Shown: positions 1,098 through 14,824 of the stretch, in pieces
Position numbering within the stretch: the first letter of the stretch is position 1
Layout of the letters: each line of letters starts with the position of its first letter
Origin: Hormoscilla sp.
GTDB taxonomy: Bacteria; Cyanobacteriota; Cyanobacteriia; Cyanobacteriales; Desertifilaceae
Assembly (NCBI GenBank): GCA_051439505.1
Contig: JBFRWI010000089.1
Span: 1 to 21,173, forward strand
Length of the DNA stretch: 21,173 nt
Reading direction: 5' to 3'
Made by a program: the position numbers and the translations under genes
The notes under the pieces: generated by a model
Told to the model about the DNA's origin: nothing
Database searches by the model: none
Seen by the model: the letters and a program-made list of their open reading frames with translations, nothing else

Positions 1098-2732
1098 ATG
1101 GAACCCCAACAAAAAGAACAATCACCTAACATAGATAGCAACAATCACCGTGTATATTCAGAAGCAAATTCTGAATATACACAAAATTCTCCGCAAGATT
1201 CATCCAATCAGCCTAGCCAAGATTCAGGTAATAATATTGCTAAAGGACAGGCTAAACTTGGAATAGTTTTTAAGCTTTTTACCAAAGATCCAATTGCAGT
1301 TGTACTTTATGTATTTCAAGGAATTAGTTGGACGACAACAGTTAAAGGCGCACATATTATATTTCCTAAAGCTAATACAGTATCCCTATCTTTATTAGGA
1401 ACTTCACTTCAATTTAAATTAATTCCTTTTGTGCTAGGTAGTGCAGTCCAATTAGCTTTAATTATGCTCTTAATAGTCAGAGCTAGAAGTCAATCGACTG
1501 TTAGAAGATGGTTCATGATTATTATATTGACCGCAGCCAGCAGTTATACTAGCTTTTTTTGCTTTTATGATGCATTACTTGGAGGCGAATTAACTGAAAA
1601 TTCTCCGAAAAAGATCCTAGCACATGAAAGTCTTAAAAATCAAATATATACTCCTTTGCAAGCTGAATATGAAAATTTACAAAACCAGTTATTGACAACA
1701 AAAAAACGCTGGGAGGACGAAGTCAAAGGTACAAGAAGTGGAATCGTTGGGATTGGATATCGAGCGTGGGAGCTTAAGCAGGAGCAAGAGGAGATAGAAA
1801 ATCAACTCAATCAAATTGAAGGAATTATTACTAATTCCAATATTGCAGCAGCATTTACACTGTCTCATGAAGATATTAAGAAACTTTCAACTAAAGAGCT
1901 TTACGATCTAGGATTAGTTGCTTGGAGTTCAATTCCAGCAGCTCACAAGAATAATTCACCAAAACCACAATTTTCCAATTATGAAAACCCGGAAGCATTT
2001 TTGCTGCCGCTGGAACGATTACAGGCTGGAGATAAAAATGCGCTCGCAGCTTTAGTAATCGCATCTTTTATAGATTGTTCATCATTAATTTTAGGAAGTA
2101 TTGGTGATAGTTTTTCATTGTCAAAAGTATTTACTATTATAGTTTCAGGGTTTATTATGAATCTGAAAAGACTTGGGGCAACTCTAAGAAGAACGATCGA
2201 TAAAGAATCAGTGCCTTTTGAGACTGAAGTGAGTCAACTATCGAATAGCACTCAAATAATCAAACTCAATAGTGATATCGAAGGACATGAGTTTTTAAGC
2301 AAGTTGCTAAACAGTATTGAAAAAATAGACGATCAGACATACATTATAAATTACGATGATTTAGTGGCAAGTGATGATAAAGATAAATGTACGTTTTATA
2401 AGTTATTATTAACAAGGATGGAAATTTATCCGTTTAATTGGCTTGAAGATTACCGGGGAAAAGAACAATATAATTTTATGGGTTTAGGAAATTTTTTCGG
2501 TCTTGGCAATCAGCAGAATTCCGATGATGCAAATCAGGGTAAACCCAAAAAACCAAAAAAACAGAAAATACTGAAAATAAAAAAGGAATGCAAAGATGCT
2601 TTTCTAAACTGGTTAACTACTGAAATAGAGAATCAAATCAATCAAGAACAGGTTAAAACTAAAGGAGTAGCTGAAATTCAGCTTTACGCTAATCCTACCC
2701 TGAGACGATCGCTCAACTCTGAAGAAACATAG
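1098..2732 (+). CDS. Multi-TM membrane protein with coiled coil, DUF4407-like
   Basis: 544-aa AT-rich ORF with SD-like AAGGGA. About three N-terminal hydrophobic segments, a coiled coil with EVKGTRSGIVGIG, then further hydrophobic segments. Family call is tentative. Confidence 0.7.
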   Translation: MEPQQKEQSPNIDSNNHRVYSEANSEYTQNSPQDSSNQPSQDSGNNIAKGQAKLGIVFKLFTKDPIAVVLYVFQGISWTTTVKGAHIIFPKANTVSLSLLGTSLQFKLIPFVLGSAVQLALIMLLIVRARSQSTVRRWFMIIILTAASSYTSFFCFYDALLGGELTENSPKKILAHESLKNQIYTPLQAEYENLQNQLLTTKKRWEDEVKGTRSGIVGIGYRAWELKQEQEEIENQLNQIEGIITNSNIAAAFTLSHEDIKKLSTKELYDLGLVAWSSIPAAHKNNSPKPQFSNYENPEAFLLPLERLQAGDKNALAALVIASFIDCSSLILGSIGDSFSLSKVFTIIVSGFIMNLKRLGATLRRTIDKESVPFETEVSQLSNSTQIIKLNSDIEGHEFLSKLLNSIEKIDDQTYIINYDDLVASDDKDKCTFYKLLLTRMEIYPFNWLEDYRGKEQYNFMGLGNFFGLGNQQNSDDANQGKPKKPKKQKILKIKKECKDAFLNWLTTEIENQINQEQVKTKGVAEIQLYANPTLRRSLNSEET

Positions 2733-2754
2733 ATTTACTATGCTAAGCTTCATT

Positions 2755-3008
2755 GTCTCAGAGCAAAGTGCGATCGCACTCTGGTCTCAGAAAAAAGTGC
2801 GATCGCCCCCTGGTCCCAGAAGAAAGTGCGATCGCCCCCTGGTCTCAGAATCAAGTGCGATTGGGTGCATCTCAATGCATGTAATTAAGCCCGCGCAGGC
2901 GGGCTTTGTTCTTGTAGCCGGACCCTTTAGGGTTCGGGCAGCAACGCAAATATGCAGTGTACCCAGTGCGATCGCCCCCCGACCTCAGAAAAAAGTGCGA
3001 TCGCCCCA
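2755..3008 (+). repeat. Tandem 29-bp HIP1-containing repeat (consensus ~GCGATCGC-CCCYTGGTCTCAGARMAAAGT), interrupted by a MITE
   Basis: HIP1 at 2770, 2799, 2828, 2857 (disrupted), 2968 and 2997; exact 29-bp period. Confidence 0.9.
2863..2964. mobile_element. 102-bp MITE-like element (GGGTGCA-type ends) with REP-like hairpins
   Basis: Ends GGGTGCA / TGTACCC. Flanks AGTGCGATT (2854-2862) and AGTGCGATC (2965-2973) form a 9-bp target duplication with 1 mismatch. Internal hairpins GCCCGCGCAGGCGGGC and ACCCTTTAGGGT. Confidence 0.75.
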
Positions 3009-3013
3009 TTATA

Positions 3014-3430
3014 TCAGCGTGCGATCGCAACTTTTTTATCTAAGACATCTTCCGCTAATAAACTAACTGGTGACTCCGATTTAATCTGCCATTCTAACCA
3101 CCTACCATCAGTAATAAAACCCGTGATTTGCCAAATATTTGACTCTGTAAACAGCACCTCCGCGATCGTATCCATATAAGGAAAGGGAGGACTGAGAGTT
3201 TGCCAATTCTTGGTATCCGAGTCATAGACGCGAACCAACATCGAATGCACTTGTTTGAACATTAGGGAACCTTTGGGTAAACAAATATGCTCGTTCCTTT
3301 GATTGTCAGGATGTTTAGCATCAACAAAGAAATCCTCCAGATGAAACACTAGCGCCTCTGCACTCTGTTCCACTGACCGAACCACTGCATCGTGGAAATG
3401 TACCTGATGCCAAGAAGATGTTACATTCAT
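3014..3430 (-). CDS. Putative immunity protein for the adjacent toxin domain
   Basis: 138 aa with an N-terminal FHDAVV motif as seen in several immunity-type proteins; 4-bp start/stop overlap with 3427..3744. Confidence 0.6.
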   Translation of the reverse strand: MNVTSSWHQVHFHDAVVRSVEQSAEALVFHLEDFFVDAKHPDNQRNEHICLPKGSLMFKQVHSMLVRVYDSDTKNWQTLSPPFPYMDTIAEVLFTESNIWQITGFITDGRWLEWQIKSESPVSLLAEDVLDKKVAIAR

Positions 3431-3744
3431 AATCCAATAGAGATATGTGCTTCTAGTGACTGACGATCTACTACTTCCAAATTAGCATTTAATGATTCAC
3501 CCGCTTCATTATACAGGTGCAGGTGATTATAGGAGATGATAACGTTTGGCGGATCGATTCTGGCTCTAACTCGCCTCGCCCCATCTCGGAAATGCAAAAA
3601 TCTACCATCTGGACTACCCGATTTCTTCAGCCCCAATGCTTCTAATTGTAAAGCAACTTCTGCTATTGTCAAGTTGCCTATCTGGGACAAAAGACTCTGA
3701 AATTCATCGGTTGTCGGATTTCTCAAAGGTGAAGGGTTGCTCAC
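3427..3744 (-). CDS. Stand-alone polymorphic-toxin C-terminal-like domain (putative His-dependent nuclease)
   Basis: 105 aa, GTG start. RIDPP...YNHLHLY...G..L......V...S.EAHI pattern resembles Rhs/CdiA-type toxin tips; no delivery domain. Confidence 0.6.
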   Translation of the reverse strand: MSNPSPLRNPTTDEFQSLLSQIGNLTIAEVALQLEALGLKKSGSPDGRFLHFRDGARRVRARIDPPNVIISYNHLHLYNEAGESLNANLEVVDRQSLEAHISIGL

Positions 3745-3811
3745 GTTGTCGTTCTTTCCATAACTGGTGGTACTTATCTGAGTAGGAAACGAGATTAACT
3801 GAAATACTCTC

Positions 3812-3826
3812 TTTATTCTAGCAGAG
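3812..3826 (-). promoter_or_regulatory. Extended -10 element TGCTAGAAT for toxin/immunity pair 1
   Basis: Minus-strand CTCTGCTAGAATAAA; identical 15-mer at 4871-4885. Confidence 0.55.
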
Positions 3827-3862
3827 TATCCGAGCAGCAGTTTTATGTTAAGTTTTGGTTAA

Positions 3863-3901
3863 ATGCGATCGCCCCCCAGCCTCAGCCCAAAGTGCGATCG
3901 C
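3863..3901 (+). repeat. 29-bp HIP1 repeat unit
   Basis: HIP1 at 3865 and 3894 separated by CCCCCAGCCTCAGCCCAAAGT. Confidence 0.85.
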
Positions 3902-4077
3902 ATTTATCCCGCTAAAGCAAATTTATCTGTTGGTTGCATTCTGGCAGACAGCTGATAGGTTAAGCTCAAGGATTTGCTCCCAGAAACTTCGCCCCGCATT
4001 GGGAGGATAAACCCGATCGCCCCATTGTCTCATACCGTTTTGTACAAAAAATGCTAAAATTAGCATTACTATGGTAT

Positions 4078-4131
4078 TAGTCGGTTTTAACCGACTTGAG
4101 CTATTAGCCGGGGGTTTGAACCCCCGGCGGG
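4078..4131. repeat. REP-like double hairpin
   Basis: AGTCGGTTTTAACCGACT and GCCGGGGGTTTGAACCCCCGGC inverted repeats. Confidence 0.7.
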
Positions 4132-4140
4132 CTGACAGCG

Positions 4141-4175
4141 AAGTCCGATCGCCCCCCAGTCTCGGACGAAAGTGC
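4141..4175 (+). repeat. Degenerate 29-bp HIP1 repeat unit (partial copy also at 4014-4033)
   Basis: AAGTCCGATCGCCCCCCAGTCTCGGACGAAAGTGC. Confidence 0.75.
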
Positions 4176-4199
4176 ATCTCCCTTTACCCAAGAGTATAT

Positions 4200-4541
4200 T
4201 TACCTAACTCCAGCCACTTCGAGAGCGTCTACGCGCGATATTGCCGCATCTGATACCATTATTCTGATTGCATTAACCGCTGATGCGATCTTCCGAAGAT
4301 CGTCATCTTCTAACCGACCACCATTTCTGTCAAGCGCCACTGCATAAACTTCTTCTAACACCGTCCATTCACCCATAAAAGAGTCATACCACTCACCGGA
4401 CATATTTTCCAGACACCCAAGCAGCGCATCTAAATTATCGATCAGTTTCGGAAGACTCATCTGACCAGACTCATAAGCATCTATTGATGCTATCATTCGC
4501 TGATATTGGCGTTGATTATAGGTTAAATTTGCTTCGAGCAT
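4200..4541 (-). CDS. Putative immunity protein for the DUF4258-like toxin
   Basis: 113-aa acidic, helical-looking protein (WTVLEEVYAVALD), SD AGGAG, directly downstream of 4566..4865. Confidence 0.65.
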   Translation of the reverse strand: MLEANLTYNQRQYQRMIASIDAYESGQMSLPKLIDNLDALLGCLENMSGEWYDSFMGEWTVLEEVYAVALDRNGGRLEDDDLRKIASAVNAIRIMVSDAAISRVDALEVAGVR

Positions 4542-4565
4542 GATTAATTCTCCTAATTGGTAGTC

Positions 4566-4865
4566 CTACCACACTGTAACAACTCTCCCGGTGCTCGTGT
4601 CAACGGCTACTGTTATCTTGTTTACCGAGTCATAGTAGCGAATGGTTCCCGACGTTCCCGGTTTTGCTATCCCAGTTTGAATCGCATTTTCAACTACACT
4701 GGGTATAATTCCACGTTTTTGCATCCTGTCAATTGCATGACCAGAATATTGACGTTCATAAATAGTTGTTCGAGAATTCGTTTCCGGTTCCACCTCAAGG
4801 TGACTGTTTCTGCGACCAACAGGTGTTGATGGGTGAGGATCTGTGTCAGTGCCGTCAATTGCCAT
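4566..4865 (-). CDS. Stand-alone DUF4258/BECR-like RNase toxin domain resembling CdiA/Rhs C-termini
   Basis: STPVGRR...YSGHAIDRMQKRGIIPSVVENAI...YYDSVNKITV.V...TGRVVTV motif. Confidence 0.75.
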   Translation of the reverse strand: MAIDGTDTDPHPSTPVGRRNSHLEVEPETNSRTTIYERQYSGHAIDRMQKRGIIPSVVENAIQTGIAKPGTSGTIRYYDSVNKITVAVDTSTGRVVTVW

Positions 4866-4870
4866 TACCT

Positions 4871-4885
4871 TTTATTCTAGCAGAG
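4871..4885 (-). promoter_or_regulatory. Extended -10 element TGCTAGAAT, 8 nt before the toxin ATG (near-leaderless)
   Basis: TAGAAT at 4879-4874 and ATG at 4865; same 15-mer as 3812-3826. Confidence 0.55.
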
Positions 4886-4894
4886 ATGACTATT

Positions 4895-5158
4895 TTAACC
4901 CGCTCGATTGACATTTGCCATTTCCTCAGCGAAATCCTCCTCAGTATATTGAAACACGCAAACCTGATAACGGGACAAAGCATCAATAAAATCTGCGCGG
5001 GTTAACCCGGCGATTTCTGCTGCTTTACCCTGAGATATCTTTCCCATATCGTACCATTTTACAGCCGCTGCAATCCTCATTTCTGCGATAAATTCCCGTT
5101 CGTCTTTACCCAGAACAGTAAATGCCGTTTCTGGCAATTGGAATGAAACTGTTGTCAC
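4895..5158 (-). CDS. UPF0175-family antitoxin (orphan; usual DUF3368 PIN partner absent)
   Basis: EMRIAAAVKWY..GKISQGKAAEIAGLTRADFIDALSRY motif; GTG start with SD AGGAGG; upstream TGCTATACT at 5221-5213. Confidence 0.85.
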   Translation of the reverse strand: MTTVSFQLPETAFTVLGKDEREFIAEMRIAAAVKWYDMGKISQGKAAEIAGLTRADFIDALSRYQVCVFQYTEEDFAEEMANVNRAG

Positions 5159-5302
5159 TTTTGTATTCCTCCTGCTGAAAATTCACGCCCGCCAAGATTT
5201 TACCCTGTGTTTAGTATAGCATTTCTCCTTTGCCGCCGACCACCCTCCAGAGCGATCGAGTATAATTGAGCTTATTGTACAGATTTACTTCCCTTACACC
5301 AA

Positions 5303-5548
5303 ATGATGTCACCGCAGGTACTGGAACTCGATCGTGCCATCCGTGCTTTGATCCTCGAAGAACAAAAATGGCTGCTCGATCGCATTAACAAACTTATCCG
5401 TAACTTTACAGATGCCGATCGATTCGCTAATGCGTCCTATATGGAAGCACAAATCAAGGAAATGGCTTGCGATCCGGACATCCAAGCAGAAATAGCCGCT
5501 ATTAACCAGGAGTTTGCCGTTACAGAAATGGATGGCTTGTCAGACTGA
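5303..5548 (+). CDS. Small antitoxin-like protein (orphan)
   Basis: 81 aa ending MACDPDIQAEIAAINQEFAVTEMDGL, a type I recall upstream of MazF/PemK genes in cyanobacteria. TATAAT at 5261; the stop is followed after 1 nt by HIP1. Confidence 0.65.
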   Translation: MMSPQVLELDRAIRALILEEQKWLLDRINKLIRNFTDADRFANASYMEAQIKEMACDPDIQAEIAAINQEFAVTEMDGLSD

Positions 5549-5549
5549 G

Positions 5550-5590
5550 GCGATCGCCCCTCTGCCTCAGAGCAAAGTGCGATCGCCCCC
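5550..5590 (+). repeat. 29-bp HIP1 repeat unit
   Basis: HIP1 at 5550 and 5579. Confidence 0.88.
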
Positions 5591-5616
5591 TAATTTCATA
5601 CTAATTGAAATCCGCC

Positions 5617-6156
5617 CTAGGTGACGACCTCTACAGCACGCTCGTGGGATGCCGTTTGCATCTCTATTTTCTCTGAGTCACGAATAGCATCCAAACGCTT
5701 CTGATAGTAATCATCTAATGAGGCCAAGATCGTACCGGAGCGAAACTCAATTCCTAAAGCATCACTAATAGCGAGTACGTCCACAAAACTGGCATTTTGA
5801 TAATCCTTTGCTTCATACTGTTGAATTTGCTCTTCCGTGCGACCGCAAAGCATACCAAGTTCTTTTTGACTGAGCTTGAGAGCAATTCTCGCTTTAATCA
5901 ATGAGTCCGATATCTCATGAATTTCGGTAATATTCAGACTGATGGGGCGATCGCGATCGTGTGCGATCAACATTTCATATTCGACGATTTCTTCCCTGAG
6001 ACGCAAGATCCGACAGTGATAAGAATCTTGTAACAGTTGCCAACCATCAGGATCTTTAAGTTTCTTTTCTTCATTTTCCCGCAGGGTGATGAGCGCTTGG
6101 GTAAATCTCTCTACCCAATATTTAGTAATGTTATACTGGTGAGAATCTTTAATCAC
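5617..6156 (-). CDS. XRE-family HTH protein (HigA-like antitoxin/regulator)
   Basis: LIKARIALKLSQKELGMLCGRTEEQIQQYEAKDYQNAS HTH. Probable GTG start at 6156 overlapping the upstream stop (GTGA); ORF track gives 6165. Confidence 0.85.
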   Translation of the reverse strand: MIKDSHQYNITKYWVERFTQALITLRENEEKKLKDPDGWQLLQDSYHCRILRLREEIVEYEMLIAHDRDRPISLNITEIHEISDSLIKARIALKLSQKELGMLCGRTEEQIQQYEAKDYQNASFVDVLAISDALGIEFRSGTILASLDDYYQKRLDAIRDSEKIEMQTASHERAVEVVT

Positions 6157-6607
6157 GGTGACCACCTCACTAAATCTATGGCAACAAGACCTTTGGAGTT
6201 TCCCAAACGATCTCTTTGAAAAAAATCATATGAAGTTATATCATCAATCGGCTGGTCTGAGGGATATATTTCGCCTCTATACTTAGCTTTTTGGGCAACC
6301 GGTTCGTAAATTTTTAGCAAAGTAGGAGCATTTATTTTCAGGTAATCCATATCTACCTCCTCCCTATCCCAGCAAGCATCAAAATCGCCTGGGTCTAATT
6401 TATTCGTAACAAAACTACCGTTAATAAACTACCGTTAATATAGATAGTTCTACATCCAGCAGCTTTTAATGCCTTCATTACAGTATACAGTCCTTGAAGT
6501 CTACGGGTGCGTTTAGTATTTGTACCAAATCTTTCTTCAAATTCTGACCACTCAGCCCAGTGTATTCCCGGAGGAAGATTGCCATTTTCATCAAAAGGTG
6601 GTATCAC
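6153..6607 (-). pseudogene. DUF6932-like minimal nucleotidyltransferase-fold gene frameshifted by a 14-bp tandem duplication
   Basis: AACTACCGTTAATA at 6413-6426 and 6427-6440. Removing one copy joins track ORFs 6395..6625 and 6153..6350 into MIPPFDENGNLPPGIH...YINGSFVTNKLDPGDFDACWD... (146 aa, GS...DxD motif). TGGTATAAT at 6692-6684. Confidence 0.88.
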
Positions 6608-6719
6608 GTTCTTGTACCTATTCAAACTGAAATTATTTGCCAGAGTTGGGTAACGTCAACCCAAGGTATTTTTCTAATTTTTGATTATACCACCCCTCCC
6701 CAGTTCTTTGTCAATCCTT

Positions 6720-6809
6720 ATGGATGGCTTCTCAGACTGAGTCGATCGCTCCATTGTCTCGGAAGAAAGTGCGATCGCCCCCCGGTCTCAGAGCAAAGTG
6801 CGATCGCCC
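6720..6809 (+). repeat. Copy of the 3' end of the 5303..5548 gene followed by two 29-bp HIP1 repeat units
   Basis: 6720-6749 matches 5528-5557 at 28/30; HIP1(-like) sites at 6742, 6771 and 6800. Confidence 0.88.
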
Positions 6810-6848
6810 CGGAACCCCCTCAAATCTTTTAGCGTGAGGGTTATCCGA

Positions 6849-7058
6849 TCATGACGCCTGTTTTTCGATATACTCCTGAATCAACCCTGACATTTTCGCG
6901 AAATCTTCAGGCTCTTGCGGACAAGGATGCCATACTTGGTCAAAAGAGTCAGCCTTATAGCGATCGACCAGCTTGTAAAATGCTTCACGATCATCCCGGT
7001 GAGCGAACACATAGGCTCGTAACTCAGCCTTGCTCATTGTATCATAATCTGGTTTCAT
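6849..7058 (-). CDS. DUF6887-like small protein
   Basis: MKPDYDTMSKAELRAYVFAHRDDREAFYKLVDR. ATG 7058 overlaps the upstream stop (ATGA); ORF track gives 7073. Confidence 0.8.
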   Translation of the reverse strand: MKPDYDTMSKAELRAYVFAHRDDREAFYKLVDRYKADSFDQVWHPCPQEPEDFAKMSGLIQEYIEKQAS

Positions 7059-7261
7059 GTTATAAATCTCCATTTTCCATCCCGACTAACTTGAATTTGA
7101 AGTTCCTCTCCGGCAAATATATATATCGTGCCATCCCGCTCATCAAAACGCAATATTTCAATTGAGCGGTAAAAATTAGTCAAAGATTGACATACCCTAA
7201 TGCAGGTTATACCTTGTTCTGCTGTAGGAAGAATGGCCACCCTCCTCTGGTAAAAATTCAT
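7055..7261 (-). CDS. DUF6888-like small protein, paired with DUF6887 (putative TA-like bicistron)
   Basis: LPTAEQGITCIRVCQSLTNFYRSIEILRFDERDGTIYIFAGEELQIQV..DGKWRF; TATAAT at 7274-7269; exact start uncertain. Confidence 0.8.
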   Translation of the reverse strand: MNFYQRRVAILPTAEQGITCIRVCQSLTNFYRSIEILRFDERDGTIYIFAGEELQIQVSRDGKWRFIT

Positions 7262-7322
7262 CTATTTCATTATACATCTGTCTCCCCAAACGCGACAACC
7301 TGGTTTCTTAATTTTTTCTATA

Positions 7323-7363
7323 AAAGTGCGATCGCTCCTGGTCCCAGAACAAAGTGCGATCGC
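7323..7363 (+). repeat. HIP1 repeat unit (28-bp variant), right end of the array
   Basis: HIP1 at 7328 and 7356 with TCCTGGTCCCAGAACAAAGT between. Confidence 0.85.
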
Positions 7364-7390
7364 GTGCATCTCGATCGGGCATCATCAATG

Positions 7391-7490
7391 GGGTGCAACG
7401 ATAATGCATGTAATGTAGCCCGCGCAGGCGGGCGCAAGTTCAGTGTAGCCGGGCCCTTTAGGGTTCGGGCGGCAAATATGGGATGCACCC
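7391..7490. mobile_element. Second copy of the GGGTGCA-ended MITE-like element
   Basis: GGGTGCA...TGCACCC ends with the same internal hairpins as 2863-2964; flanks TCATCAATG / TTATCGATA (6/9). Confidence 0.72.
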
Positions 7491-7515
7491 TTATCGATAC
7501 AACCAACTACCCGCT

Positions 7516-7648
7516 CAATACTTCTCGGTTAAGCAAGAGGCAGGGGGCAGGAGATTGCTTCGGGGGGGGTCTCTTCAATTTCCCATAAGTTAATCGCGGT
7601 TGTCCCCCCCTCGCAATGACAAATACAATCTTTAACCGAGAAGTATTG
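7516..7648. mobile_element. 133-bp MITE, IS4-family-like ends, inserted beside the mntB stop codon
   Basis: Perfect 17-bp TIRs CAATACTTCTCGGTTAA (7516-7532) and TTAACCGAGAAGTATTG (7632-7648); perfect 10-bp target duplication ACTACCCGCT (7506-7515, 7649-7658). Confidence 0.88.
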
Positions 7649-7649
7649 A

Positions 7650-8498
7650 CTACCCGCTTCCAGACTGGTGTGAAGTTAAAATCCCTTGAGTGGGACTGAA
7701 CAGCAATGCTAGCAGAAAAAATCCTGATACCACTAAGACGATCGCGGGACCGGAAGGCAAGTTAAAAAAGTAGCTGAGGTACATGCCACTGACACTGGCA
7801 ACCACCCCAATAACTGCCCCCAAAATCATCATTTGGTGCAGTCGCTTGACCAACAAATAAGCTGTTGCCCCAGGGGCGATCAGCAATGCTAGCACTAACA
7901 CGACGCCGACAGCTTTGAGACTGGCAACAATAGTGAGGGAAATGAGTACCATTAACCCAAAGTTGAGCAGGTTTACGGGTAAGCCAGCTGCTTGGGCCCC
8001 CAGAGGATCGAAGGTGTAAAAGAGCAATTCTTTGTATAGCAGCAGCACTACCAATAAGACAAAGGCCCCAATGATGGCAGTATCTCGCAAGTCAGTAATG
8101 GTGACGCCGAGAATGTTGCCGAACAGAAAGTGGTTGAGGTCGATCTTGTTGTCTTTTTGAATGATGGTAATTAAAGTAATGCCGAGCGCAAAAAAGGCAG
8201 AGAAGACTATCCCCATAGCGGCGTCCTCTTTGATGGGCGATCGCTTCGAGATCCAGGCAATAACCATGGTACTAAAAACCCCGGAAATAAAAGCACCGAC
8301 AAAAATATTGGCTCCTAACAGAAAGGCGATCGCCAGTCCGGGCAGTACGGAGTGACTGATGGCGTCTCCCAACAGCGCTAGTCGCTGCACCATCAGATAA
8401 CTGCCCACTACAGAACAGATGATGCCGACTAAAATAGCGATCGTCAGCGATCGCTGCATGAAACTATATTGCAAAGGTTCGATTAAACTTTCTAACAT
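7650..8498 (-). CDS. mntB: Mn/Zn ABC transporter permease
   Basis: ALLGDAISHSVLPG and LNHFLFGNILGV motifs, multi-TM. Probable start MLESLIEP at 8498; ORF track gives 8513. Confidence 0.92.
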   Translation of the reverse strand: MLESLIEPLQYSFMQRSLTIAILVGIICSVVGSYLMVQRLALLGDAISHSVLPGLAIAFLLGANIFVGAFISGVFSTMVIAWISKRSPIKEDAAMGIVFSAFFALGITLITIIQKDNKIDLNHFLFGNILGVTITDLRDTAIIGAFVLLVVLLLYKELLFYTFDPLGAQAAGLPVNLLNFGLMVLISLTIVASLKAVGVVLVLALLIAPGATAYLLVKRLHQMMILGAVIGVVASVSGMYLSYFFNLPSGPAIVLVVSGFFLLALLFSPTQGILTSHQSGSG

Positions 8499-13746: not shown

Positions 13747-13820
13747 AAACCCATACATCAATTCATTACTAAGCTTATTTCATCTTAGACCAACATCTTG
13801 CCCTGGGTTCCCATCGGCAG

Positions 13821-14311: not shown

Positions 14312-14824
14312 ATGAGCACGTTAATTATGTCTGCACCTCAGCAACAAAAAGAATTGTTACGGCATCAGCTAAATCAACTATTGAACGATGTCGGCACTTC
14401 CCAGAAATCGGCGGATAGGACTTGGACTCCAGCAATGGAAATGCAAAGCACTTCTACCGCAGTTATCTTGCGTCTAGAACTGCCGGGAGTAGCAGGCAAA
14501 GATGTAGACTTACAGGTGACGCGGGAAGCAGTTTTGATTGCAGGCGATCGCCCCACTAACCAAAGTCAAGGCAGATGGGTCTCAGAAATATGCTACGGCA
14601 AATTCCGTCGCTTTATTCCTTTGCCCGTAGCAGTAGATAATACGCAGGTGCAGACAGAATTTAACAATGGGATTCTCACCCTGACCTTACCAAAATTGGC
14701 AGCGGTACGTCCGGAGGTAGTGAAAGTGAAGGTATCGTCAGCTAGCAGCACTCCGGAAACAGAAGTTGCCTCAGCTGCTGTAACGGAACCGGATGAATTA
14801 GAAACAGACCTTTGGGCAGCCTAG
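14312..14824 (+). CDS. Hsp20/alpha-crystallin small heat-shock protein
   Basis: WTPAME...LELPGV...SEICYGKFRRFIPLP...FNNGILTLTLPK; SD AAGGAG. Confidence 0.93.
   Translation: MSTLIMSAPQQQKELLRHQLNQLLNDVGTSQKSADRTWTPAMEMQSTSTAVILRLELPGVAGKDVDLQVTREAVLIAGDRPTNQSQGRWVSEICYGKFRRFIPLPVAVDNTQVQTEFNNGILTLTLPKLAAVRPEVVKVKVSSASSTPETEVASAAVTEPDELETDLWAA

Follow-up and report, generated by a model that had tools for sequence, protein, structure and literature searches.

The stretch analysed here, called the window below, is contig JBFRWI010000089.1 of a Hormoscilla sp. at its full length of 21,173 nucleotides (nt); it is contig C89 of a 6.47-Mb genome (G000; 93% complete), in which 6450 octamers of the highly iterated palindrome HIP1 were counted. 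Between positions 2753 and 7363 it carries an array of small cassettes, namely toxin tips with their partner genes and toxin-antitoxin (TA) genes, with joints that carry a HIP1-anchored repeat unit. This array is real, and it represents a variant of cassette shuffling mediated by repeats. We somewhat favour reading it as an integrase-free 'accordion' array of toxin-tip/immunity and TA cassettes, in which the joints would have been made by capture events. The features of the array and its borders are listed below, with matches of dispersed elements counted over the genome.

1098..2732, plus strand: gene of 544 amino acids (aa), low GC content (34%), belonging to no curated family; borders the array on the left; its paralogue (80% identical) stands at the head of the nearly empty array on contig C32
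2753..2864, plus strand: tandem HIP1+21-nt units, one partial and full ones at 2770, 2799 and 2828
2862..2945, unstranded: palindromic element of the repetitive extragenic palindrome (REP) type, dispersed genome-wide (147 matches), secondary insertion
2968..3028, plus strand: unit at 2968-3004 and a shorter HIP1-to-HIP1 stretch to 3028; joint 3' of module A
3014..3430, minus strand: partner gene of module A, 138 aa, putative immunity protein by position
3427..3744, minus strand: toxin tip of module A, 105 aa, matching the C-terminus of RHS and haemagglutinin-repeat proteins
3865..3901, plus strand: unit
3902..4029, unstranded: decayed segment common to the array on C32 and those of the related genomes G003 and G004, with a partial unit (4014) at its end
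4030..4144, unstranded: element resembling a MITE (miniature inverted-repeat transposable element) or REP, dispersed genome-wide (104 matches)
4145..4177, plus strand: unit; joint 3' of module B
4200..4541, minus strand: partner gene of module B, 113 aa, putative immunity protein by position
4566..4865, minus strand: toxin tip of module B, 99 aa, DUF4258 (Pfam)
4895..5158, minus strand: UPF0175 gene with no partner; a 3-bp microhomology deletion has fused it to the promoter of a PIN cassette that was lost
5172..5245, minus strand: promoter remnant of a deleted block (nucleotidyltransferase, unit, PIN TA) that is retained in G004
5303..5548, plus strand: orphan gene O, 81 aa, weak antitoxin label
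5528..5586, plus strand: left copy of a 59-bp duplication (last 22 nt of O and HIP1-21-HIP1), with cassette X directly after HIP1
5617..6165, minus strand: XRE/HTH_3 gene of cassette X (Pfam)
6153..6607, minus strand: DUF6932 gene of cassette X (Pfam), split by a 14-bp tandem duplication
6720..6807, plus strand: right copy of the 59-bp duplication (50 of 59 positions identical), with a 7-nt microhomology to X, then a unit at 6771-6807
6849..7261, minus strand: cassette D, DUF6888 (7055-7261) and DUF6887 (6849-7073) (Pfam)
7324..7363, plus strand: 28-bp variant of the unit, end of the array
7374..7649, unstranded: two elements dispersed genome-wide (44 and 174 matches), between the array and an ABC-3 permease gene

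The repeat unit consists of HIP1 (GCGATCGC) followed by 21 nt, 29 bp in all, and every copy has the same orientation, as an earlier note on this DNA had read it. Nine full copies start in the window (2770, 2799, 2828, 2968, 3865, 4145, 5550, 6742 and 6771), together with the 28-bp variant at 7328 and the partial unit at 4014, and the whole set spans 2753 to 7363. Spacings between units are either 29 bp, with no spacer, or 0.3-1.4 kb, and the 21-mers agree at 12-18 of 21 positions (mean identity 74%). A position weight matrix was built from the nine window copies, whose own high scores are therefore by construction, and gave 22 matches in the 6.47-Mb genome. Seventeen of these are strong (score of at least 29.8, the other five scoring at most 23.1), nine in the window and eight at a paralogous locus, C32:2636-3260, with none elsewhere. 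The unit is thus not evenly spread, and the part of the window outside the array has 17 plain HIP1 sites and no unit, as the note had stated. Among GTDB representatives the exact unit was matched five times, only in two Hormoscilla records; the unit sequence itself is lineage-specific. Its folding shows pairing only via the two palindromic HIP1 arms, with variable inner folds and no conserved inner stem. Contrary to what had been proposed, the repeat does not punctuate every module, for module B, the UPF0175 gene and gene O share the single interval 4182-5549. The partial unit at 4014 is present, yet it runs into the dispersed element at 4030-4144, and in all four dispersed elements, with 44-174 genomic matches each, are inserted in joints of the window.

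The array on C32 sits behind the paralogue of the 544-aa gene and contains units and dispersed elements and no cassette. Both contigs open with a common block of about 2.8 kb (window:1-2861 and L001:1-2727), 90% and then 80% identical, which includes the 544-aa gene. No DNA match to this gene was found in the related genomes G001-G005, and the block appears to be a duplicated foreign block that carried the repeat array along. At 11 kb from the empty array, a series of paralogues of PD-(D/E)XK-like type and one RelE-like gene, with direct repeats that contain HIP1, occupy G000:C32:14405-18467.

Sequence nearly identical to the window is present in marine sediment metagenomes. Contigs of runs X1 and X3, which may be the source sample, span several of its junctions with almost no differences, and because they bridge these junctions an assembly artefact is unlikely to be the cause of the layout.

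The six modules, their strands and the labels DUF4258, UPF0175, HTH_3, DUF6932, DUF6887 and DUF6888 were all borne out by Pfam. The tip of module A gave an empty result in a word-seeded search for long homologues; a profile search then found 236 matches at the extreme C-terminus of long proteins, including RHS carriers and carriers of haemagglutinin repeats, up to 2309 aa in length. The DUF4258 protein of module B has 44-64% identity to four longer proteins, among them carriers of RHS and Hint domains. Because of these matches to C-termini and long carrier proteins, the 5' genes of both modules are, as far as homology tells, free toxin tips, and this identification by the earlier note was correct. 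Its immunity and antitoxin labels for the partner genes and gene O fit by position and stay putative, no family match having been found for any of them in Pfam or further searches; the ESM Atlas assigned neither tip A nor gene O to a family and gave only weak leads. The split in DUF6932 is a 14-bp tandem duplication near 6412-6440, which is also in a contig of run X3. Hexamers resembling a -10 box precede all six modules, inside the modules and outside the unit, a count with no chance level behind it. The claim that each module has its own is correct as to presence; the one before the UPF0175 gene was inherited from the deleted PIN TA cassette.

Relatives were compared as species-level genomes and not as clonal strains (completeness of G000, G001, G002 and G004: 93-96%). 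G003 and G004 carry the window's cassettes and unit at a different chromosomal site. With U for the UPF0175 gene and MNT for the nucleotidyltransferase, the window reads units-A-unit-B-U-O-unit-X-units-D-unit, and G004 reads units-B-U-MNT-unit-PIN TA-O-unit-A-unit. G003 is without B-U-MNT, and both ends of this missing block lie within units, as do the O-to-A join of G003 and G004 and the start of B. In runs X5 and X7, which hold related strains from two other studies, an end falls in the unit at six of the listed joints; at one of these O has a different neighbour, and at another X stops one base short of a HIP1 core. Neither B nor D is covered in these runs. The run comparison is drawn from assembled contigs, to which repeat copies can map ambiguously, and no circle junction is among the joints listed from them. 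A joint in X1 between 2937 and 3864 was rejected as an excision, being the junction of the C32 paralogue, and comparisons of filled and empty sites at C148 and C100 were uninformative owing to rearranged or deleted flanks in the relatives. In G001-G005 the permease operon is instead found near hpf (in G004 on the opposite side, following a local rearrangement), and these genomes lack the 544-aa gene; they offer no empty site for comparison at the window's own position. The comparison with G003, G004, X5 and X7 confirms that the repeat marks joints at which cassettes were reordered, gained and lost, and the earlier idea of capture, loss and shuffling largely holds. To judge from these arrangements, it is recombination between units that reorders, gains and loses cassettes, not exclusively at units.

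Arrays of this kind are not confined to one locus. Tandem families that are anchored on HIP1 and specific to one locus are numerous elsewhere in G000, their periods being 16-44 bp, and about a dozen of 18 inspected tandem regions have cassettes of TA or toxin-tip type between the copies (PIN, ParDE, HicAB, nucleotidyltransferase, DUF433, UPF0175, CdiA-CT/CdiI, C39-peptidase and PD-(D/E)XK). A second array family of 7-12 kb, also with TA and toxin-tip cassettes, is found at L113, L115, L117 and L118 (G004:C18, G001:C6, G003:C196 and G003:C173) and at L033 (G000:C214). Its joints of 120-400 bp consist of HIP1 microrepeats and a REP-type hairpin, and it is strongly reshuffled among G000, G001, G003 and G004. 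In G210, five modules of TA type are separated by a HIP1 unit of 40-41 bp, and the modules are reshuffled in G228 and G231.

The origin of such joints was approached through the sequence that flanks single cassettes. Cassette X lies between the two copies of the 59-bp duplication, which covers the last 22 nt of O and one whole unit; its left junction is exactly at HIP1 and its right junction at the 7-nt microhomology, and G003 and G004 have a single O-unit join with X absent. At the exbB-rsmH site of family f6, 6 of 15 relatives' loci are empty and have a single 65-70-bp stretch that ends at HIP1 inside the 3' end of rsmH. Two copies of this stretch surround a DUF6887 gene in G130 and G241, the stop codon of that gene lying within the duplicated stretch, and the other loci hold different insertions, or else the cassette with its flank altered. 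Because it includes coding sequence and supplies the stop codon of the cassette, the rsmH duplication arose with the insertion. In G319 an exact 38-bp HIP1-22-HIP1 duplication surrounds a 670-bp cassette, a clean empty allele being found in none of 20 relatives. HIP1-bounded duplication of 55 bp around cassettes was found as well. The joint of G210 resembles a HIP1 context that lies in the 3' end of the adjacent gene, for Mg-chelatase, with 13.2 matches out of 24 against a null mean of 6.8 (1 of 1902 null contexts was as high). These cases point to joints that would come from target sequence duplicated at insertion, 38-70 bp long, with one junction exactly at HIP1. The rsmH 3' end in genus g43 (L132:4740-5320 in G130; L134-L148) is an insertion hotspot: it has taken up the DUF6888/DUF6887 cassette with its duplicated target as well as different insertions, and the rsmH C-termini come in alternative forms.

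The exact 38-bp and the HIP1-bounded 55-bp duplications would also suit a dedicated HIP1-directed nuclease or strand transferase that nicks two adjacent HIP1s and so duplicates HIP1-N-HIP1, as Cas1-Cas2 does with the CRISPR repeat. The many locus-specific HIP1-N-HIP1 tandem families in a single genome agree with such an enzyme, as does the small dispersed repeat SDR5, which inserts precisely inside HIP1 and for which directed HIP1 cutting was suggested (PMC4390886). We nevertheless consider it unlikely, given that the duplications are of varying length (38-70 bp or longer) and often reach HIP1 at one end only, that no recombinase lies beside any array examined, and that earlier work detected no HIP1-binding complex (PMC13756078).

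Capture at HIP1 was further evaluated by counts against control genes. From 118 TA cassettes, 27 were dropped for lying near contig ends or having less than 100 nt of non-coding flank, and 26 of the remaining 91 for lying in loci chosen by their repeats, which left 65 unseeded cassettes. HIP1-containing direct repeats flank 7 of these 65, compared with 7 of 350 control open reading frames (ORFs; p=0.002), and inverted HIP1-containing pairs flank none in either set. The ends of TA genes are modestly nearer to CGATCG, the HIP1 core, than control gene ends (p about 0.01). Order-wide, HIP1-ended direct repeats were found at 6 of 26 DUF4926 loci, against none of the 28 hpf loci (p=0.009; p=0.045 when DUF4926 is pooled with DUF6888). 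In these statistics the genomes, being related, do not count as independent, and hpf serves as the sole control gene. The locus counts leave out all loci of under 3000 bases (three DUF6888, four DUF6887, four DUF4926 and one hpf) and the window's own DUF6888 locus. HIP1-ended duplication is a minority route of cassette capture.

A number of results weigh against HIP1-anchored capture and shuffling as the general rule. In the window, the loss of MNT-unit-PIN used a 3-bp microhomology, which placed the UPF0175 gene behind the PIN promoter. G001 has a scrambled, unit-free version with genes cut mid-way, only one of its junctions touching the HIP1 of a unit, and the XRE copy at C42 ends within genes. 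The expectation that breakpoints between strains fall at the repeats is therefore correct for the reordering, the loss in G003 and the joints of X5 and X7, and wrong for the U-O deletion and nearly all junctions of G001. In the second array family, 24 of 69 internal block ends, which are not independent of each other, lie in joints (5-17% of the sequence) in both genomes and 8 in one, leaving 37 outside joints. A direct repeat was lacking at score 40 in 52 of the 65 unseeded TA cassettes, and HIP1-ended direct repeats occur at only 2 of 26 DUF6888 loci phylum-wide and at 2 of 26 DUF6887 loci in genus g43, both of the latter at the same rsmH site. Among 83 locus-specific local direct repeats, 12 have a HIP1 end, compared with 7-10 at inward-shifted positions, which is no clear enrichment. 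Derivation of the window unit from the 3' end of the 544-aa gene was not significant, 169 of 1500 null contexts being as good, and the empty sites could be secondary deletions.

The lack of a genome-wide HIP1 excess at duplication ends is what would be expected if the joints were neutral slippage scars in junk-rich intergenic hotspots, made by generic illegitimate recombination in which HIP1 is simply the commonest microhomology and the shuffling is passive. CGATCG does occur at 2.96 per kb, and dispersed elements and truncated genes litter the arrays. Such an origin is in conflict with the enrichment of HIP1-ended duplications around cassettes relative to controls and with the rsmH duplication, and we rate it as rather unlikely. 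Another candidate for the driving force is REP/REPIN sequences with a RAYT (Y1 HUH) transposase, the HIP1 units then being by-products. Several joints of the window do contain REP-type elements, as does the joint of the second family, and Y1_Tnp matches were found in G000, G001, G003 and G004. By inspection, however, no REP hairpin is present in the G210 joints or in the rsmH and G319 duplications, G210 has a single weak Y1_Tnp match, and the reorder points of the window are in the unit and not in the REPs. The cases at hand suggest HIP1 junctions, and a REP-driven origin is very improbable.

We return to HIP1-seeded capture followed by shuffling of the kind described for promoter-stem-loop (PeSL) elements, the mechanism that we would propose from the compared sequences. 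Short HIP1-bounded cassettes would arrive first, probably by natural transformation (comEC is present in nine of nine genomes tested) or from elsewhere on the polyploid chromosome. One cassette end would then recombine at a chromosomal HIP1 with its CGATCG core, and the other would join about 40-70 bp away, either at another HIP1 or at a microhomology of 5-7 nt. With crossovers out of register, the target between them would be duplicated and come to flank the cassette, and it is the footprint of this second step that is seen. Repeated capture and HIP1-to-HIP1 slippage may amplify the stretch into a locus-specific repeat, here HIP1+21 nt. Comparison of the arrays further suggests that cassettes are deleted, duplicated and put in a new order when co-oriented copies recombine and that a whole block can move together with its joints. 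In parallel, ordinary microhomology deletions and REP/MITE insertions would erode the arrays. A precise HIP1-flanked deletion of smtB has been reported (PMC13756078), and methylated HIP1 raises integration efficiency (bioRxiv 2024.09.10.611283).

The function of HIP1 has been an open question for three decades, and the evidence now available suggests a part in DNA uptake and recombination (PMC13756078). Several families show both filled and empty sites, targets that were duplicated and cassettes that were reshuffled; the arrays would be natural footprints of HIP1-anchored capture, and a role of HIP1 in gene capture thereby becomes directly testable. A broader reading, possible and at present doubtful, is that HIP1 directs gene capture across the phylum and does the job of an integron with no integrase: methylated HIP1 would mark the crossover, the local stretch would be duplicated each time in the manner of a CRISPR repeat, and any intergenic site or gene end might grow an array of toxin, antitoxin and defence cassettes that is open to shuffling. 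This would give HIP1 a concrete selected function and help to explain the multiplication of small gene families in cyanobacterial genomes. Because the joint differs at every locus, integron and CRISPR finders would probably miss the arrays, which are candidates for a reservoir of TA, defence and toxin-tip genes yet to be characterised. If capture is confirmed, HIP1-bounded cassettes could be a simple tool for gene insertion in cyanobacteria.

Some further features were observed in the window and near the permease gene. A stand-alone gene for HSDR_N, the N-terminus of the type I restriction R subunit (window:11617-12243), lies between the copies of a diverged 49-bp direct repeat (11566 and 12469) and is possibly another captured cassette. 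Between a long ORF that ends at 13761 and an ORF of 170 aa at 14312, window:13886-14227 holds a 7-bp tandem tract of about 20 copies and then two direct repeats of 109 bp. In G001, G002 and G004 a 2.4-kb element with an ORF of 500-600 aa, which we take to be group II intron-like, lies in or beside the permease gene (copies at L050:3826-6228, L051:12666-15088 and L048:6012-9170), and a related copy is on G000:C125.

The nearest formal counterpart is the integron, and the earlier note had regarded the unit as attC-like with no integrase in the window. The second part is correct, as no integrase is nearby and none was found in the genome. Tyrosine recombinase (PF00589) matches number zero in G000, G001, G002 and G004, which means not even XerC/D, and G003 has two such genes; TIGR02249 (IntI) was above cut-off in none of eight genomes. 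Nine serine resolvase matches were found in G000, none of them on C89 or C32, and a resolvase was not adopted as the array enzyme, since one that was inspected has a MerR-type HTH and resolvase layout. We take this layout to be IS607-like. The attC-like nature did not hold. No RYYYAAC...GTTRRRY pair (attC R''/R') is present in 2701-7700, there is no conserved inner stem, and cassettes of the same families have unrelated flanking repeats at different loci, the joint travelling when a whole block moves. The repeat apparently comes from target duplication at insertion and is not carried by the cassette, so that a recombination site of its own on each cassette does not appear to exist. Having failed the defining attC and IntI tests, the array is not an integron.

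A decayed integron cassette array with a distant or lost IntI, that is, a cluster of attC sites lacking integrases (CALIN), is accordingly hardly credible and already largely refuted, all the more as the joints are locus-specific with many unrelated periods. What recommends it is that promoter-bearing TA modules, toxin tips and the layout resemble chromosomal integrons and that some cyanobacteria have integrons (PMC4889954). Shared with both are cassettes of one or two genes between related repeats, variable order and content and richness in TA genes (PMC4889954); different are the lack of attC boxes, attC structure and IntI, the joint derived from the target and the mixed orientation of the cassettes.

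A CRISPR array was also rejected, with no regular unique spacers present. Rfam gave no match in the array, its sole match in the window being CRISPR-DR28 at window:12604-12627, outside the array in a dispersed palindromic element that has related copies at 2887, 7416 and 10731.

Orphan cdiA-CT/cdiI and rhs-CT/immunity modules are known free toxin-tip systems. Modules A and B are like them in being free tips with a downstream partner gene, and unlike them in having no full-length carrier upstream, an own start and promoter-like hexamer, and type II TA genes mixed among them.

With the PeSL of the T4-type phages RB49 and phi1 the array shares the integrase-free shuffling, gain and loss of small accessory genes via co-oriented short repeats (PMC2839356), here seen by comparison only. 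PeSL is one family of promoter plus stem-loop per genome (PMC2839356), whereas here each locus has its own HIP1-anchored joint. The window unit is not a repeat of promoter and stem-loop terminator, has no promoter role and no conserved inner stem, and the promoters lie within the cassettes. Mini-circles were demonstrated for PeSL (PMC2839356); the window array is known from contigs only.

SDR5 resembles the unit in its length of 21 nt and its association with HIP1, where it lies between bases 3 and 4 (PMC4390886, PMC5861425, PMC13756078). It is a dispersed repeat that is described only from Nostocaceae (PMC5861425, PMC13756078). Set against these descriptions, the window unit is not dispersed over many HIP1 sites, having strong copies at two paralogous loci, lies between two whole HIP1s and separates genes.

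In the openly accessible literature that our search covered, we found no description of HIP1-jointed cassette arrays. Related in mechanism is HIP1-mediated illegitimate recombination (smtB in Synechococcus PCC 6301, a plasmid in PCC 7002), which likewise has a HIP1 crossover without long homology (PMC13756078, PMC4390886) and is likely to be the elementary step of the window arrays. Those cases are single deletion or plasmid events; here gene capture with target duplication would build arrays.

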